From UHGV virus genome UHGV-0110229: a DNA stretch of 53,808 bases; one strand, 5' to 3'. Shown here one piece after another: positions 8,815-25,431 of the stretch. The number at the start of each line of letters is the position of its first letter. Within the stretch, counting starts at the first letter, position 1. Position numbers and translations under genes: made by a program. Under the pieces are notes generated by a model. It saw only the letters and a list, made by a program, of their open reading frames with translations. It was not told the DNA's origin and ran no database searches. This DNA comes from a virus.

Positions 8815-8846
8815 CGCTTCGCAGCGACACCGGATTTTTAAAGAGC
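8815..8846 (-). promoter_or_regulatory. nut-like site (boxA + boxB-type hairpin) for the leftward operon
   Basis: On the minus strand: AGCTCTTTAAAAATCCGG followed by hairpin CGCT-GCGA-AGCG; shares the 17-mer GCTCTTTAAAAATCCGG with the site at 17292. Confidence 0.5.
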
Positions 8847-8887
8847 TTTTAAGGTATGTTCCTTTTGTGCTTTCCATTATCTTTTTT

Positions 8888-13932: not shown

Positions 13933-14030
13933 TTATGGACGACACATTGTTTTATATGTGCTGTTGCTGGGGTTTTATTGCCTTATGCCTGTTTATCAGG
14001 TGGTTTATTGAATACCATATGAGGTGATTT

Positions 14031-17193: not shown

Positions 17194-17290
17194 AATTTAC
17201 AAAATGGCGTCATTGCGTGATGTGGATCACATAATGGCGCTTTTTACCTTGTTCTGACGTATCCATTTTGTATACTTCAAACAAGCAAAA

Positions 17291-17325
17291 TGCTCTTTAA
17301 AAATCCGGCAGCGCTGAAATGCGTA
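17291..17325 (+). promoter_or_regulatory. Internal nut-like site (boxA + weak hairpin) upstream of the ninF/ninG-like genes
   Basis: TGCTCTTTAAAAATCCGG then CGC-TGAAAT-GCG; the 17-mer GCTCTTTAAAAATCCGG is identical to the leftward nut-like site. Confidence 0.4.
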
Positions 17326-18786: not shown

Positions 18787-18965
18787 AAAACGAAATTAAA
18801 GATCTGCAAATAGATATTCAGCGCGATGAGCATGATTTAGAAACGGTCCGACAAATCCAGGCTTTTCATATGCGCGAATTGCTTGCATTGAAAGAGCTTG
18901 AGAGAAAGTTAGTTCAGTCTATTTCTGATCGTAAACACCTTATTGCTCGTTACGGGGGCAAGTAA
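18783..18965 (+). CDS. Hypothetical protein
   Basis: 60 aa ORF. Confidence 0.3.
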   Translation: MKNEIKDLQIDIQRDEHDLETVRQIQAFHMRELLALKELERKLVQSISDRKHLIARYGGK

Positions 18966-19687
18966 TGAATCTGGAATCTATTCTCAAATTCCACTTCCCA
19001 AAATCACCGCGTTTATCAGATGAAAGCCGGGGCACGTCCCCGGATGCACTTAATACTACGGATGCACTAACAGCAGCAGGCATGGCGCAATCGCGCGTAG
19101 AGCTTGGTTATAGCGCTTTTTTAGGGAAGATGGAACTATCACAAGCCGAAAAACATAAGGCCGTAGTTTTGCTTACAGAGCGTTTAAGGACTATGGCAAA
19201 AGATTATGAATACGTTATGGAACTGGACGAGGCCAAACGCAATGATCTTATTATTCTTGTTGCCGTTTTCGCGTTTCGGGATTATTGCCAAAGCGCCGCG
19301 ACGGAAAAAACTTGCCCGGAGTGCGGCGGATATAAATTTACGTTTGACGACTACGGAGAAAAACACCTTTGCAAAAAATGCAAGGGGCATGGGACAGTTC
19401 GCAATCATTGTAAACAATGCAAGGGCCGTGGCGAAGTACCGGATAAAGCAGCCAGTGAAGCGGCGGAAATGCCAGTGTTCAAAACGTGCCAGCATTGCGG
19501 CGGGCGCGGGTACTCGCGTTTCCCTGTAGATCTTGTACGGCAGGCGGTTAATCAGCTTGTTTTTCCGGTAAGCCGATCAACATGGTGGAAAAAGTACCGG
19601 GCTTTCTATGAAGACGCCATTGCTGAATTGTTCAAAGAAGAGGCGCTGGCAGATAACGAAATTAAAAGAGTGACGCGGGGTGAATGA
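18965..19687 (+). CDS. DnaJ-type zinc-finger protein (4x CxxCxGxG); positional candidate for late antiterminator Q
   Basis: 240 aa; four motifs CPECGG, CKKCKGHG, CKQCKGRG, CQHCGGRG; located after ninG/rusA where Q sits in lambdoid phages; function not established. Confidence 0.4.
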   Translation: MNLESILKFHFPKSPRLSDESRGTSPDALNTTDALTAAGMAQSRVELGYSAFLGKMELSQAEKHKAVVLLTERLRTMAKDYEYVMELDEAKRNDLIILVAVFAFRDYCQSAATEKTCPECGGYKFTFDDYGEKHLCKKCKGHGTVRNHCKQCKGRGEVPDKAASEAAEMPVFKTCQHCGGRGYSRFPVDLVRQAVNQLVFPVSRSTWWKKYRAFYEDAIAELFKEEALADNEIKRVTRGE

Positions 19688-19890
19688 TGGATAAGCTGGA
19701 AATAAACGATCAGTTTGCTGTTATCTTGTTCGAAGATAAAACGGGCGGTGCATGGTGTAAGAAAGTCACTGGTGCGGAAGCACGATTAATATTGGGTATG
19801 GCAAGCGCGTTAAATGATGGTGAATTGCCAGCCGTACCAGTTGAGCCAGTACATATTTACGGACGGAATAAAGATAATGAAAATAATTAA
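19684..19890 (+). CDS. Hypothetical protein
   Basis: 68 aa ORF. Confidence 0.3.
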   Translation: MMDKLEINDQFAVILFEDKTGGAWCKKVTGAEARLILGMASALNDGELPAVPVEPVHIYGRNKDNENN

Positions 19891-20224
19891 TATTGGGTGG
19901 CTGTATTGCGAAAACTGCGACGACGATGGTATGGTCGTAAAAACTGAAAAAGGTTGCGGCTTCATGCTGTATCAAGGTGATAAATTCGTTTGTCCTCGCT
20001 GCGGCGGCGGTGGTGAGATAGAAATCGTTAATGATATTGCTACAGCACATAAGCCATCTCGCATTGTCCTTGATGAAAAAATAAAAATTCATCCTGATTT
20101 ATTACAGCAAATTATCGATCACGTATCGGCAGCCGCAATCTATAGCGATAACAATTATCAGCGTGAAATGAACGTCAAACGTGCTATTAAGCAGTATTTC
20201 GAGGTTGACGACAATGAAGCCTAA
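19877..20224 (+). CDS. Hypothetical zinc-ribbon protein
   Basis: ATG 19877; CENC..CPRCGG motifs. Confidence 0.35.
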   Translation: MKIINIGWLYCENCDDDGMVVKTEKGCGFMLYQGDKFVCPRCGGGGEIEIVNDIATAHKPSRIVLDEKIKIHPDLLQQIIDHVSAAAIYSDNNYQREMNVKRAIKQYFEVDDNEA

Positions 20225-20486
20225 ATTAAAGGAACATCTATTTGCAAAACTGGTTAACGAATTAACGGAAACGGCACACCATTACGCTGGAACACAACAG
20301 CTACGCGGACGGTTGTCTTCAGTTGTCAACCGTTACATTGATGCAGGATGTCACCGCAAAGGTGAAATGACTATGGACAAGGCCATCAAGCGCCGTTCGG
20401 CTGAATGGTCAGTGAGTAACACCGGATTAACCGGATACATTGAAGGCTATAACGACTGTTTACAGGATCATAGCAATGAAAAGTAA
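20214..20486 (+). CDS. Hypothetical protein
   Basis: ATG 20214 within track ORF 20181..20486. Confidence 0.3.
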   Translation: MKPKLKEHLFAKLVNELTETAHHYAGTQQLRGRLSSVVNRYIDAGCHRKGEMTMDKAIKRRSAEWSVSNTGLTGYIEGYNDCLQDHSNEK

Positions 20487-20694
20487 CCGCAAGCGCCTTG
20501 TAAGGGCATATGACAAAGCATTAAAGGCTTTTGATGATCTGCGAAGCAATAAGCGCCAGCGCCGCAAATGGGCGCGCATGCTTGTTCATGAATGGCATTA
20601 TCCTGATGCTGCCTTGATAGAAGGTGCACCGCCATTTACACAGGAACAAGCCGACGAAGTAGCTAACGATAACGTTTATTATATGATGTGGTGA
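20476..20694 (+). CDS. Hypothetical protein
   Basis: ATG 20476 within track ORF 20440..20694. Confidence 0.3.
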   Translation: MKSNRKRLVRAYDKALKAFDDLRSNKRQRRKWARMLVHEWHYPDAALIEGAPPFTQEQADEVANDNVYYMMW

Positions 20695-20698
20695 TAAT

Positions 20699-21064
20699 AT
20701 GCAAATAATCATTGATTATCTTTGTCATGCTGCAAATACGCTTTTTGGTTTTTATCAACAACCATTCCTCAAAGAATGGGACGAAATGCTGAATGACATC
20801 ATTGATAAAGGGTTAATAATGGAGGTTGACGATCTCACAATCAAATTTAATTACGATGGTAAAGAATATCTAATTTGGGTTGGTAATAGATGGTATTCAT
20901 ACGGTCATATTTATTCAATTGGTGGTAAGTTCATTAAAAGAAACCAGGAATTTAGGCCACGCTTCCGCACAATGCGCCGCCTGCATGACCTGCATATGAA
21001 GATATTTGAAGATCAGGAAGAGCGCGAACTATTCAAGATCTACGGGGATAAATCATGGAATTAA
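20699..21064 (+). CDS. Hypothetical protein
   Basis: 121 aa ORF. Confidence 0.35.
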   Translation: MQIIIDYLCHAANTLFGFYQQPFLKEWDEMLNDIIDKGLIMEVDDLTIKFNYDGKEYLIWVGNRWYSYGHIYSIGGKFIKRNQEFRPRFRTMRRLHDLHMKIFEDQEERELFKIYGDKSWN

Positions 21065-21285
21065 AAATCTGGCAGGCTATCGACGTAGTTGATAATGCGT
21101 TATCTATGTTCGCCACCGATGGGAAACGCGTAGCAATCACTACATGGACGCGCAACTATGATGATATTTCTTTTCGTCGCAGAACGGCGGAGTGGTTTTT
21201 CTCTGAAGGCGGCTACACGATGAACATCGCACAGCTTGCCAGAATGAAAGATGAAAAGCTGGTGGACAGCTACACAACTGCGTAA
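21055..21285 (+). CDS. Hypothetical protein
   Basis: 76 aa ORF. Confidence 0.3.
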   Translation: MELKIWQAIDVVDNALSMFATDGKRVAITTWTRNYDDISFRRRTAEWFFSEGGYTMNIAQLARMKDEKLVDSYTTA

Positions 21286-21295
21286 CGGGGTAAAT

Positions 21296-21529
21296 ATGCG
21301 TATCTATGAACACAAGCGGGATAAAACCCGCTTTTTTGTTCGTGCTGGCGTGGCGTACCAGTATCACGAATGCGGTTACATTGAGGCGCTTGCTTACGAT
21401 CTGGACTTCGAGCAAGAAAAGGAATGGTTCGATTTTAAAATTTACCGTAAGCGCAAACCAACTCGCGACGAGCGCCACGCTATCCGTGAATTTTTAATCA
21501 GCATTGAACGTTGGGAGACAGAAGAGTGA
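21296..21529 (+). CDS. Hypothetical protein
   Basis: ATG 21296 (MRIYEHK) within track ORF 21251..21529. Confidence 0.3.
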   Translation: MRIYEHKRDKTRFFVRAGVAYQYHECGYIEALAYDLDFEQEKEWFDFKIYRKRKPTRDERHAIREFLISIERWETEE

Positions 21530-21753
21530 AAGTTAAATTCTTGCACGATCACGGTTATCCGTCACTGAAACAGGTTGTTGGTAAGGTTGTTAACGTCGTC
21601 CATAGCGATGATGTCACTTGCATGATTAACGGTGCTGATTTAATCGCCGCTGGCGCTGATGATCATTACATCAATCCTGCCTGGTCGTATACGTTCAGCC
21701 TGGGTGACTTCGTTGGCGACAAGGGGCGCGGGCTGGAAGTAGTCGAGGGTTAA
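21526..21753 (+). CDS. Hypothetical protein
   Basis: GTG start overlapping previous stop, GGGAGA RBS. Confidence 0.3.
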   Translation: MKVKFLHDHGYPSLKQVVGKVVNVVHSDDVTCMINGADLIAAGADDHYINPAWSYTFSLGDFVGDKGRGLEVVEG

Positions 21754-21757
21754 CATC

Positions 21758-22006
21758 ATGGACGTTTACGAAGATCTATACCTCCAGACAAACACCCGCA
21801 CTTTTTATTTTCTGAAAAACGGCGTCGTATATCGCAGCGACGACGGGGTAATAATGAAGGAGTGGTTATTTAAGCGTAAAGACCTACTCGACGATCTGGT
21901 TTTTGCCGGGATATTTCGTAAACGTCCGGCTAACCTGGAAGAAGAAATGTTGATTGAGGTATATCAAAATGAAAATCAGGGTAAGTTATTTCCGGGCGAA
22001 AGATAA
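21758..22006 (+). CDS. Hypothetical protein
   Basis: 82 aa ORF. Confidence 0.3.
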   Translation: MDVYEDLYLQTNTRTFYFLKNGVVYRSDDGVIMKEWLFKRKDLLDDLVFAGIFRKRPANLEEEMLIEVYQNENQGKLFPGER

Positions 22007-22220
22007 GGCAACAGGAAAGCAGATGGCGATCCTGGTAAACGAGGCCAATTACATGTTTGTGCTTCAACCGTGGTGTATAGCTGACTATAACGATAATTAT
22101 CGCCGCCACAGCGCGCGTGGTGCTGTAGGGATGAAAGGCTGGCAGCCGCGCGACATGGAAAGCTATTGTGAATGGAAGCTGATAGCAAAATACACGGTCG
22201 ATTATAAAGGTGTGTTCTGA
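21969..22220 (+). CDS. Hypothetical protein
   Basis: ATG 21969 with GAGGT RBS; overlaps the previous ORF by 38 nt, so one of the two may be wrong. Confidence 0.3.
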   Translation: MKIRVSYFRAKDKATGKQMAILVNEANYMFVLQPWCIADYNDNYRRHSARGAVGMKGWQPRDMESYCEWKLIAKYTVDYKGVF

Positions 22221-22330
22221 TGGTATTGCTTTCACGCAATAAATATAAAACGTGATCTACCTCGCAAAATATACGAAATGGCATTGTTTCGGCAGTGCCA
22301 TTTTGTTATATATAAGCCACCGAAAGACGG

Positions 22331-22642
22331 ATGGGCAAAATCATGAAAAGCAATAAATTCATAGCGTGCTGTTTTGTTGAAGTACCTGAAGGTGATGTCT
22401 TCTGCAATTACGAATTTAAAGACAGTTGGGGAAAATCTCATGTTGTAGTTGGCAAGCGCGGGGACTGGTTATACATAACAGACGATGACATGATTTTTAC
22501 TGTAAGCCAGTTATTCAAAATTAAGTCAGAAAATAGTGAAGCACCACTTTGCAGAATGTTTAACATGCATTATCACTCACTATTATTGTTAAAACAAGAT
22601 GTTGTAAACAAAGCGCGTAGCTTACCTGGTGCCGAATTTTAA
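22331..22642 (+). CDS. Hypothetical protein (AT-rich cargo island)
   Basis: 103 aa ORF; preceded by an inverted repeat/hairpin at 22276-22303. Confidence 0.35.
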   Translation: MGKIMKSNKFIACCFVEVPEGDVFCNYEFKDSWGKSHVVVGKRGDWLYITDDDMIFTVSQLFKIKSENSEAPLCRMFNMHYHSLLLLKQDVVNKARSLPGAEF

Positions 22643-22665
22643 TTTCTTACGAAGGAGAATGACAA

Positions 22666-22866
22666 ATGTCTAAATTTATCAGCGTTAAAGTTTTTCGTGG
22701 CACTTTTCCAGAAGATGAAAAAAATGGACAATTCGCCGGACAACCTGGCGCATGTTTCCGTGTAGCAACTGACAACGAAGATTGCGTAAAATGCTACCAC
22801 GTATCTGAACCTCCTTTTGACGTGAAATATCTTGATAATGCAGATCACGTTAAATTTTTATCTTAG
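22666..22866 (+). CDS. Hypothetical protein
   Basis: 66 aa ORF with strong RBS GAAGGAGA. Confidence 0.35.
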   Translation: MSKFISVKVFRGTFPEDEKNGQFAGQPGACFRVATDNEDCVKCYHVSEPPFDVKYLDNADHVKFLS

Positions 22867-22965
22867 TATCATTGGAACTTAATCCATTCCCTGGTGATGA
22901 AGTGGAATTGATTGGCGCTGAACTGGTCGCTGAATACAAAATGACTGAAGGTGTAACAGGGGGAA

Positions 22966-23220
22966 TTGACATTGAGCGCATCAAGTAAGCTATACAAGAT
23001 CAGGTGTAAAGGCGAATATCCTGGCTTTACGACTGGTTGCGAATACCTGGGCCATATTGGGTACGGCCCTTTCGGCGAATTAGGGATGAATACGCTGGAC
23101 GACGATGGCGACAACAGGACGCTTGATCTTGATTCTGATGATTTCGAATACATCCCGCCAGTAACTTACCGCGTGGTTGATGAGTTCCTGGCTGAACATG
23201 AAGACGATGAGGATGATTAA
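22966..23220 (+). CDS. Hypothetical acidic protein (start uncertain, TTG only)
   Basis: 84 aa ORF without in-frame ATG near 5' end; an upstream TTG-start ORF 22872..22988 overlaps in another frame. Confidence 0.2.
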   Translation: MTLSASSKLYKIRCKGEYPGFTTGCEYLGHIGYGPFGELGMNTLDDDGDNRTLDLDSDDFEYIPPVTYRVVDEFLAEHEDDEDD

Positions 23221-23344
23221 ATGGAAGATTGGTATAAAAATTTGCTAATTATGTTTCTTTCTGAAAATTGGGCGCTATTTGAGCGTTTTTGCGAGGAACA
23301 TGGAGAAGACCCTAACGATATTTATCACGATCTTGGGGGTGAAG

Positions 23345-23545
23345 ATGATTGAATGCCTTATTATTGCGGTTATTATCATTTACCTGGCTGGCGTCATTTT
23401 AATGGGCGCTTTTCAGAAAGCTGTTGATAGTGACGGCATTATTTGGTTCGAGCTAGTCTTCTGGCCTTTCATTACGATATACGCATTCAGTGACGCTATG
23501 CGTATTAACATCATGCGAGCCATTAAGGAGCGCAAAAATGATTGA
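23345..23545 (+). CDS. Small membrane protein
   Basis: 66 aa MIECLIIAVIIIYLAGVILMGAF.., GGGGGTGA RBS. Confidence 0.35.
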   Translation: MIECLIIAVIIIYLAGVILMGAFQKAVDSDGIIWFELVFWPFITIYAFSDAMRINIMRAIKERKND

Positions 23546-23720
23546 AGATGGCGTGTACGCGGCAACAGTAGTTGAAAGGCTGTTTTACCGCGTAGAAGGC
23601 GATGATATTCGTATCCGCGTTGGCGGTGGCGAGTGGGTAGCGCCAATCATTAAGACGACGCGAGAAACAATTAAAATATTTCTTGATGCTGGCGAACTGG
23701 TGAAGGTTGGCGACCTATGA
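23538..23720 (+). CDS. Hypothetical small protein (MIEDGVY paralogue 1)
   Basis: 60 aa; AGGAG RBS. Confidence 0.3.
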   Translation: MIEDGVYAATVVERLFYRVEGDDIRIRVGGGEWVAPIIKTTRETIKIFLDAGELVKVGDL

Positions 23721-23893
23721 ATGAGATCGAAGATGGCATCTATTTGCATAAGGTATTCAACATCGCTTATTTGGTTAGAGGTGAAGCGGTGATGATAAGA
23801 CCTGATGACGTTCCGTATTGGGAATTAAGCGACATGGATCGGTGGCACATGCAAATGCTACTTGATAATGGACTGATATACAGAAAGCGGTAA
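23717..23893 (+). CDS. Hypothetical small protein (MNEIEDGIY paralogue 2)
   Basis: 58 aa; N-terminal similarity to the preceding ORF. Confidence 0.3.
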   Translation: MNEIEDGIYLHKVFNIAYLVRGEAVMIRPDDVPYWELSDMDRWHMQMLLDNGLIYRKR

Positions 23894-23958
23894 AGCCGTA
23901 TTTGTGGGTCGAAAACAAACAGATTAAAATATTACCTAACAATGCGAAAGTGTAACTA

Positions 23959-23980
23959 CCCGGCCCCGTGCCGGGTTTTT
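23959..23980 (+). terminator. Rho-independent terminator upstream of lysis cassette
   Basis: CCCGGC-CCCGT-GCCGGG followed by TTTTT. Confidence 0.6.
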
Positions 23981-24000
23981 GCTTTGTTGGAGGTAAATCT

Positions 24001-24201
24001 ATGTTCGACAGAATACGGGAGGCGTGTGCGTATGTGACCGGGGCCGTAACTGCTTTTTTCGGCGCGATAACCATCAATGACATTGCCGTCTTTGTGGGTA
24101 TCTTATCAACCATTGGCACATTTGCCGTTAATTATTACTTCAAATCACAGGAGAACAAGCGAGCGCAAGAGGAACACGACGCGCGAATGGGGAATAAGTA
24201 A
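24001..24201 (+). CDS. Class II holin (pinholin-like, two TMDs)
   Basis: 66 aa from ATG 24001 (GGAGGT RBS); two hydrophobic segments and charged C-terminus; resembles phage 21 S-type holin. Confidence 0.6.
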
Positions 24202-25152: not shown

Positions 25153-25431
25153 CAGCGCGTGGACGTGTCGCCGTTTCCGCCAGCCAGCCATAACCGGGCC
25201 AATCCTTCCCGCGAGCGACGGCGGAAAAGTCAAAAACACGTAATACCTGGTCAACAGCCTCATTAACAGGTCCGGCGCTACCTGGGTAGAAGAAAGCGCC
25301 ATTCTCCAGTTTTATAAAATTCTGAAAACGGTACTCATGCAGCGCCGTTTTTAGTGTTTTATAGCTGTTTTCACTCCCTGCGGTGTCCGGTTTTGCGGGG
25401 GTTATATTTTTCAGGATAGAGGAATATTCTG

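Follow-up and report, generated by a model that had tools for sequence, protein, structure and literature searches.

What is the run of small genes that separates the antiterminator gene Q from the lysis genes in the virus genome UHGV-0110229, and in which phase of infection would it be transcribed? An initial annotation, made from the letters of this stretch alone (53,808 nucleotides (nt), hereafter the window), had described about 17 small open reading frames (ORFs) at 19684-23958, between a zinc-finger Q candidate and the lysis cassette, and had likened them to the late-expressed cargo of Shiga toxin (Stx) phages. The array proves to be a real, conserved but heavily shuffled set of small phage genes, which we now count as 18 plus-strand genes (19 ORFs, one gene, o12, being split) running from the stop codon of Q (19687) to 23893. 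We read it as a hyperplastic accessory-gene array lodged between Q and the site of action of Q in one phage lineage, the mEpimmI group, and as early rather than late, a reading to which we give a probability of roughly 0.6. Of the initial description, one part stands: between a genuine Q and the lysis cassette lies an accessory region, variable and made of small genes whose functions are unknown. The analogy with Stx-type late cargo is not supported.

The 9.5 kb around the array are 88-92% identical to Escherichia phages mEp010, mEp044, mEp554, mEp013, mEp515, mEp021 and MagusPhagus, and beyond these no DNA match to the 9.5-kb region was found among 50,697 phage records, with a distant search mode included. 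The sequence places the window, a coliphage, in the published mEpimmI group (relatives of mEp021 and mEp010), which is described as made up of Nus-dependent, non-lambdoid temperate siphoviruses, common in the human gut and equipped with three nut sites, a Q-like protein and an N-like antiterminator, Gp17 (PMC11893012). Related prophages are present in 35 of 5,426 complete E. coli genomes, and the comparison set also includes 45 related viral contigs; gene presence is counted below over 49 related loci and conservation of elements over 48 relatives.

The argument turns on the gene at the left edge of the array:

18965-19687, plus strand: Q antiterminator gene, 240 amino acids (aa), matching PF03589, phrog_127 and PDB 7UBM

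The Q protein exceeds the gathering score of PF03589 (E=4.5e-30) and matches phrog_127 (E=1.5e-78) and the solved structure of lambda Q (PDB 7UBM, E=8e-40), the last in a full-length alignment covering both halves. These sequence matches identify the gene as a true homologue of lambda Q and bear out the candidate of the initial annotation. Relative to lambda Q, the protein carries an extra CxxC zinc-ribbon insert of ~32 aa (residues 115-146). The closest Q proteins outside the group belong to P22-like Salmonella phages, for example SEN22 (40% identity), and a Q search of species-representative genomes gave no match. Directly after Q there is no promoter/terminator pair in the window, as had been noticed before, and the Q stop codon overlaps the start of o01.

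The sequence downstream of Q was compared in nine phages of the Q-lambda family (lambda, P22, HK225, SEN22, ES2, Klebsiella ST16-OXA48phi5.1, SfV, phiEt88 and AH07). Within 100 nt of the Q stop, eight of them have a common layout: a -35 hexamer (TTGACT, TTTACT or TTTACA), 16-17 nt, a -10 hexamer, 4-7 nt, the motif AAC[GA][ACG]T and, 20-60 nt beyond it, an intrinsic terminator; AH07 showed no clear match to it. The P22 copy is annotated as Plate, a Q-utilisation (qut)-like site and tlate. In lambda, AACGAT at +1 to +6 is a sigma-70-dependent pause element. The same order of elements is found in the window at the far end of the array, immediately before the holin gene:

23902-23943, plus strand: candidate late promoter PR' with Q-utilisation features, in the layout shared with Q-lambda-family phages
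23902-23907, plus strand: -35 position of PR', TTGTGG
23908-23924, plus strand: conserved spacer of PR', resembling a Q-binding element (QBE)
23925-23930, plus strand: -10 hexamer of PR', TAAAAT
23938-23943, plus strand: -10-like pause element of PR', AACAAT
23958-23985, plus strand: intrinsic terminator, candidate tR' (t5 of mEp021), with a hairpin at 23958-23976 and a T-run
24001-24201, plus strand: holin gene, the first late gene (PF16080, E=1.8e-14)

From the Q stop to the -35 position of the candidate PR' is a distance of 4214 nt. The 107-nt pre-holin spacer reads TTGTGG-N17-TAAAAT-ATTACCT-AACAAT, with the terminator hairpin 14 nt further on; the lambda counterpart is TAAATT-N6-AACGAT against TAAAAT-N7-AACAAT in the window, and the closest element is that of SEN22 (TAATAT-CATTTCT-AACAGT), the phage with the nearest outside Q. 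A relaxed pattern for the full layout matches the plus strand of the window twice, at the pre-holin site and at a site starting at 14028. The terminator ranks first in our terminator scan (fold -21.8 kcal/mol, z = -3.7), in agreement with the strong terminator initially noted just before the holin, and corresponds to TERM_5 of the mEp021 record MH706966; t5 is among the experimentally demonstrated terminators of mEp021 (PMC11893012). It is most likely tR'.

The pre-holin spacer is 93.5% identical to that of mEp021, and in the 48 relatives (32 distinct sequences) the block is near-invariant from AAACAAA through TAAAAT and CTAACAATGCGAAA to the terminator. In the PR' core, 30 of 36 columns show no variation and sequences differ pairwise by 0.046 on average, against a synonymous diversity (pS) of 0.195 in the adjoining holin gene; the -10 hexamer (5/6 consensus matches) is invariant, and the pause element after it does not vary in any of the 48. 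The block is kept behind varied upstream genes (families 5, 6, 25 and 26, or a membrane protein), ahead of two holin types, and in the E. coli prophage L108, of which Q is 71% identical, the array 6.7 kb long and the spacing from -10 to pause element 6 nt as in lambda. It occurs in single copy and is restricted to the mEpimmI group. Within the group the QBE-like spacer is conserved as AAAACAAAyAGAT (window form AAAACAAAC), which may be where Q binds.

Two side observations may be added. A motif TAAAAT-N6-AACGGT lies at 25315-25332, in the intergenic space after an Rz-like gene and near TERM_6 of mEp021. A constitutive PR', if real, would yield a terminated RNA of ~45-50 nt in lysogens (window 23937-23985), the predicted counterpart of lambda 6S RNA and of the regulatory small RNA StxS of Stx phages (PMC7547250).

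Because the PR'/qut/tR' candidate lies downstream of the array, the array is not expected to be Q-dependent late cargo. For it to be Stx-like, a cryptic late promoter would have to operate at the junction of Q and o01, making the array Q-dependent, with the pre-holin terminator merely read through. A weak look-alike does exist at the Q stop (19670-19711, GTGACG-N16-TAAGCT-N7-AACGAT), its pause-like hexamer being the same as that of lambda, but we rejected it as a late promoter: it lies inside coding sequence, it is missing from the viable phage mEp021 and from six relatives (L015, L023, L025, L027, L033 and L046, which have another o01 or none), and no terminator follows it within 1.6 kb. The pre-holin element, unlike this look-alike, is kept in all 48 relatives and is the only conserved PR'-like element, on the 3' side of the cargo. 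We therefore hold Stx-like late cargo to be improbable; the motif at 19670-19711 might descend from a late promoter that once adjoined Q, or be due to chance. The initial annotation had itself named two findings that would tell against it, poor conservation of the ORFs and a PR' located elsewhere; the ORFs are conserved, and the PR'-like site does lie away from Q.

The early reading calls for a source of transcription upstream of Q, for which the relevant elements are:

17291-17325, plus strand: nutR2-like site, boxA TGCTCTTTAAAAA with a small boxB-like hairpin, 1.64 kb upstream of Q (given for context)
9853, plus strand: sister nut-like site
8835-8847, minus strand: sister nut-like site

The three sites agree by position with the three nut sites reported for mEp021 (PMC11893012). 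Since there is no gap from Q to o10 and a nut-like site is found 1.6 kb upstream of Q, we propose that one transcript carries Q and the array, which would form the far end of the early rightward operon, and that the polymerase making it has been modified at nutR2 (17291) by the N-like Gp17. Such modification would permit passage through the terminator-like hairpins in o07 and at 22273-22306 (both described below). The pre-holin block would then act as PR'/qut/tR', where Q, supplied in trans from ~4.2 kb away, would load on paused RNA polymerase and enable it to pass tR' and transcribe the lysis and structural genes. The early class is independently supported by homologues of o05 (42-46% identity), which sit between cox and gene A in the early operon of P2-like Salmonella prophages and between gemA and mor in the early region of a Mu-like phage. 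Between 17 and 27 kb the scans gave 22 terminator-like sites where 10.1 were expected, an enrichment not shared by promoter-like sites (15 against 19.8 expected).

Beside nutR2, the predicted terminator t4 (window 17205-17245) holds the palindrome CGTGATGTGGATCACA, which in many relatives is a perfect core site for CRP (TGTGA-N6-TCACA), variable at its centre; the palindrome could act as a hairpin stem, as a CRP site or in both ways. That this recurrent TGTGA-N6-TCACA, ~1.5 kb upstream of Q, is a by-product of coding for CxxC motifs was considered and ruled out, as it sits in the intergenic hairpin beside nutR2.

Several points weigh against early transcription of the array ahead of a separate PR'. 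The -35 position is weak and variable: most relatives have TTGTGG or TTGTAG, but L108 and about one relative in four have TCGCGC. For this reason we treat the promoter activity of the block as predicted rather than assured. The QBE-like spacer has no evident similarity to the lambda QBE, a sigma-70 consensus scan listed neither of the two promoters proposed here (PR' and that of the cassette described below), the expression class of every array gene is deduced from sequence, and function searches yielded no function for any cargo protein. The poor -35 hexamer in some 25% of relatives and in L108, where moreover the upstream gene runs into the -35 position, would also suit a block that is no promoter at all, consisting of a terminator and a Q-utilisation and pause site at which Q loads on elongating complexes that initiated upstream. 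In Q-lambda systems, by general knowledge, Q loads on a promoter-proximal, sigma-70-dependent paused complex, and the invariant TAAAAT is correctly spaced from the pause element; a weak -35 is moreover compatible with initiation. A block without promoter function thus appears unlikely to us, and PR'/qut/tR' is kept as the preferred identity of the pre-holin elements.

The genes of the array fall into three parts:

19684-20694, plus strand: left variable arm, with o01 (19684-19890), o02 (19877-20224), o03 (20214-20486) and o04 (20476-20694)
20699-22220, plus strand: conserved core, with o05 (20699-21064), o06 (21055-21285), o07 (21296-21529), o08 (21526-21753), o09 (21758-22006) and o10 (21969-22220)
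22343-23893, plus strand: right variable arm, with o11 (22343-22642), o12a (22666-22866), o12b (22872-22988), o13 (22966-23220), o14 (23221-23352), o15 (23345-23545), o16 (23538-23720) and o17 (23717-23893)
21314-21341, plus strand: hairpin with T-run, terminator-like, inside the core gene o07 (terminator scan)

Neighbouring genes overlap by 4-38 nt or sit 0-23 nt apart, with the exception of two larger gaps, at 22221-22342 (122 nt) and 23894-24000 (107 nt, before the holin). The left-arm genes overlap by 4-14 nt from the Q stop onward, and intergenic space from Q to o10 is zero. Every ORF is under purifying selection, with ratios of nonsynonymous to synonymous diversity (pN/pS) of 0.06-0.53 at pS of 0.24-0.51 (16-38 distinct homologues each); the ratio is 0.17-0.38 in the left arm and 0.06-0.20 in the core block o05-o10. 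Sixteen of the 19 ORFs have strong PHROG matches and o02 a weak one, all to families without known function, while o09 and o11 have no PHROG match. The start of o11 at 22343 is backed by alignment and by the PGAP annotation of a related locus (L004).

Among relatives the distance from Q to the holin varies from 2,007 nt (mEp021) to 7,143 nt, and ~41 ORF families occur in a collinear, fixed order across loci. The core genes o05-o10 are present in 48-49 of the 49 loci, o01-o04 and o11-o17 in 20-45, and tandem duplication is frequent (families 2, 5, 6, 10, 12 and 29). The array is thus a fixed-order 'menu', a conserved core with two variable arms, and its genes are probably in part dispensable, many being missing from viable relatives such as mEp021. 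Across 33 distinct homologous sequences the o07 hairpin hardly varies at synonymous sites, and in one relative two synonymous changes within it compensate each other (GCGGG/CCCGC to GCGCG/CGCGC).

The larger gap between core and right arm introduces a second candidate for control of transcription. The AT-rich island that had been placed at about 22230-22870 has a guanine-cytosine (GC) content of 0.371, below all sampled 641-nt stretches of the 53.8-kb window, and the inverted repeat reported ahead of it is found at 22273-22306 (z = -4.0 for a 121-nt fold), as part of the following group of elements:

22248-22320, plus strand: composite stem-loop/promoter-like cassette of ~70 nt in the 122-nt gap
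22251-22266, plus strand: CRP-like site of the cassette
22273-22306, plus strand: hairpin of the cassette, with a U-rich tail
22284-22289, plus strand: -35-like TTGTTT of the cassette, in the hairpin loop
22304-22312, plus strand: extended -10-like TGtTATATA of the cassette

The cassette is present in 36 of 48 relatives, normally once, and is annotated in the mEp010 record as predicted terminator T8. Its upstream neighbour differs from relative to relative and it always precedes genes of family 6 (to which o11 belongs) or family 20; mEp021 and 11 other relatives are without it. The hairpin is supported by covariation (96.7% of cells paired, four compensatory pairs, a value reached by 0 of 500 shuffles; slid controls gave 35-59% paired), and while the stem arms covary, the loop TTGTTN and TGnTATANN 17 nt further on stay constant. 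This strict pattern occurs nowhere else in ~1 Mb of related loci. The constant parts resemble a -35 and an extended -10, suggesting a candidate promoter, and the element as a whole has, judged by its sequence, the appearance of a terminator/promoter composite that sits at a shuffling junction. Two relatives (L010 and L108) have it twice, the copies flanking inserted gene cassettes. An example of such an insertion is a 239-aa gene of L108 (10383-11102) with a weak PAPS_reduct match, which lies between two diverged copies of the element.

In the arrangement proposed above, transcription of the right arm (o11-o17, with the AT-rich island) may start additionally from the promoter-like half of this cassette, and the cassette may also provide a site of recombination by which gene cassettes are gained and lost. 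It is possible to go further and to regard o11-o17 as an autonomous moron operon with its own transcription from 22248-22320, perhaps expressed in the lysogen under control of cyclic AMP (cAMP) and CRP, and ending at the pre-holin terminator; this would be compatible with early transcription of the left arm and core. Some observations speak for such a unit: the GC content of the island deviates and is the lowest of the window, the pattern TTGTTN-N17-(TGn)TATANN persists despite the covarying hairpin arms, and the cassette keeps its downstream partner while its upstream neighbour changes. The next strong terminator is tR', 1.6 kb downstream. In 16 relatives, a perfect TGTGA-N6-TCACA is centred 48 nt before the -10 (about -60.5/-61.5), the geometry of a class I CRP site. 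The window copy is imperfect (CGTGA-N6-TCGCA), and the site is degenerate in the L108 copies; because these divergent copies lose it, and because a similar palindrome forms a hairpin beside nutR2, we regard CRP control of the cassette as only a possibility. The GTGAT/ATCAC palindrome may simply be a hairpin in some relatives, as at 17216, the cassette is lacking in mEp021 and 11 relatives as said, and expression from it is again a prediction. An independent operon of this kind is thus a tentative proposal. More doubtful is the combination of all these elements, in which the lineage would have separated Q from the place where it acts and let a plastic gene nursery grow in between. Exchange in this nursery would be brought about by a mobile terminator/promoter cassette of the kind so far described for lytic T4-type phages (see below), and its right arm would act as a moron operon, expressed in the lysogen, responsive to cAMP-CRP and stopping at tR'; were it true, the host would gain catabolite-controlled prophage functions such as defence or anti-defence.

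As to the cargo proteins themselves, three features listed in the initial annotation are recovered: a zinc ribbon, in o02 (CxxC...CxxCGGGG, weakly matching DnaJ_CXXCXGXG); a small membrane protein, o15, the sole one of the array (maximum Kyte-Doolittle value 2.88); and a tandem paralogue pair, o16 and o17, both of phrog_15318 and 29% identical to each other. The gene o12 (22666-22988) is a 107-aa member of phrog_23107, frameshifted by a 1-nt deletion in a T homopolymer at 22853-22857 (T5 in the window, T6 in L004, L001 and L031) into a truncated 66-aa protein and an orphan 38-aa ORF, which may reflect a real pseudogene or a sequencing error. Its neighbours o13 and o14 (22966-23352) encode strongly acidic small proteins (isoelectric point 4.1), o13 ending in DDDGDN..DLDSDDFEY..EHEDDEDD; in relatives o13 is annotated as the C-terminal 43-44 aa alone, and PHROGs has an 83-aa form. 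The homologue of o09 (82 aa, 21758-22006) in mEp021, mEp021_41 (L002 3634-3882), is labelled 'virion structural protein' in GenBank MH706966, an unexpected label at such a position that presumably derives from the virion mass spectrometry of PMC11893012.

Searches of Pfam, NCBIfam and PADLOC gave no named-family match for any cargo ORF, and the PADLOC defence models gave zero matches at E<=0.05 (18 ORFs submitted, all 17 complete cargo genes among them; o12a and o12b scanned separately). A PDB sequence search with seven ORFs returned nothing significant, the best matches, o07 to UHRF1 (E ~0.04) and o02 to a serpin (0.035), being judged chance, and Rfam and transfer RNA (tRNA) scans found nothing. 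A protein search with o08 returned close relatives only, and o11 is restricted to E. coli prophages of mEpimmI type. An ASCH-domain 'RNA-binding protein' that is common in relatives is absent from the window. Given their small size, plasticity and early-operon context, and nothing else, the cargo proteins are most likely early accessory factors of the host-takeover or anti-defence type, with no function assigned to any one of them.

If early transcription of the array holds, the genes between Q and lysis in this common gut coliphage group would be early accessory rather than Q-dependent late cargo, which shifts their expected role to host takeover or anti-defence and away from toxins coupled to release. 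The reading also yields a predicted place, 2-7 kb from Q, for the late promoter and qut site of mEpimmI phages, neither of which has yet been mapped, and would mean that a Q-lambda-type system tolerates such a distance between Q and qut. This separation bears on the old question whether Q prefers to act in cis. The ~41 small-gene families of the slot form a compact candidate set for functional screens.

Set beside known systems, the locus shares with the late control module of lambda and P22 a Q homologous over its full length and the order of -10, 6-7 nt, AACNNT, terminator and holin. The module is split here, with 2.0-7.1 kb of accessory genes between Q and PR' as opposed to at most 100 nt in the eight comparison phages, the -35 is weak and variable, and Q has an extra zinc-ribbon insert. 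The map position between Q and the lysis genes and the variable content are those of the Q-to-S region of Stx phages, whose Q-dependent cargo follows PR'-tR' (PMC6266700, PMC7547250); here, however, the cargo lies upstream of the PR'-like element and includes no tRNA genes (tRNA scan) and no toxin homologues (Pfam, NCBIfam). With the delayed-early nin region of lambda, which extends from P to Q and has terminators overridden by N, the array has in common small, packed, same-strand genes below a nut site and above PR' and internal terminator-like hairpins. It differs in following Q, the homologues of NinF, NinG and RusA being upstream of Q, and o01-o17 have no match to a Nin family in Pfam or NCBIfam. 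The AT-rich island downstream of a boundary-like cassette recalls what is often seen in lambdoid morons (PMC3594210). Finally, the cassette is reminiscent of the promoter early stem-loops (PeSLs) of T4-type phages, which combine terminator and promoter in one cassette and bring about gene shuffling in hyperplastic regions (PMC2839356, PMC4122927): both join a stem-loop, here backed by covariation and with a U-rich tail, to a conserved promoter-like sequence at a variable junction, and in two relatives the cassette is duplicated around inserts. Unlike PeSLs, which number dozens, it is a single-copy element in the window and 35 relatives and has two copies only in L010 and L108; it belongs to a temperate siphovirus, and its promoter is as yet a candidate. 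A role as a shuffling junction would extend the mechanism described for T4-type phages to temperate siphoviruses.

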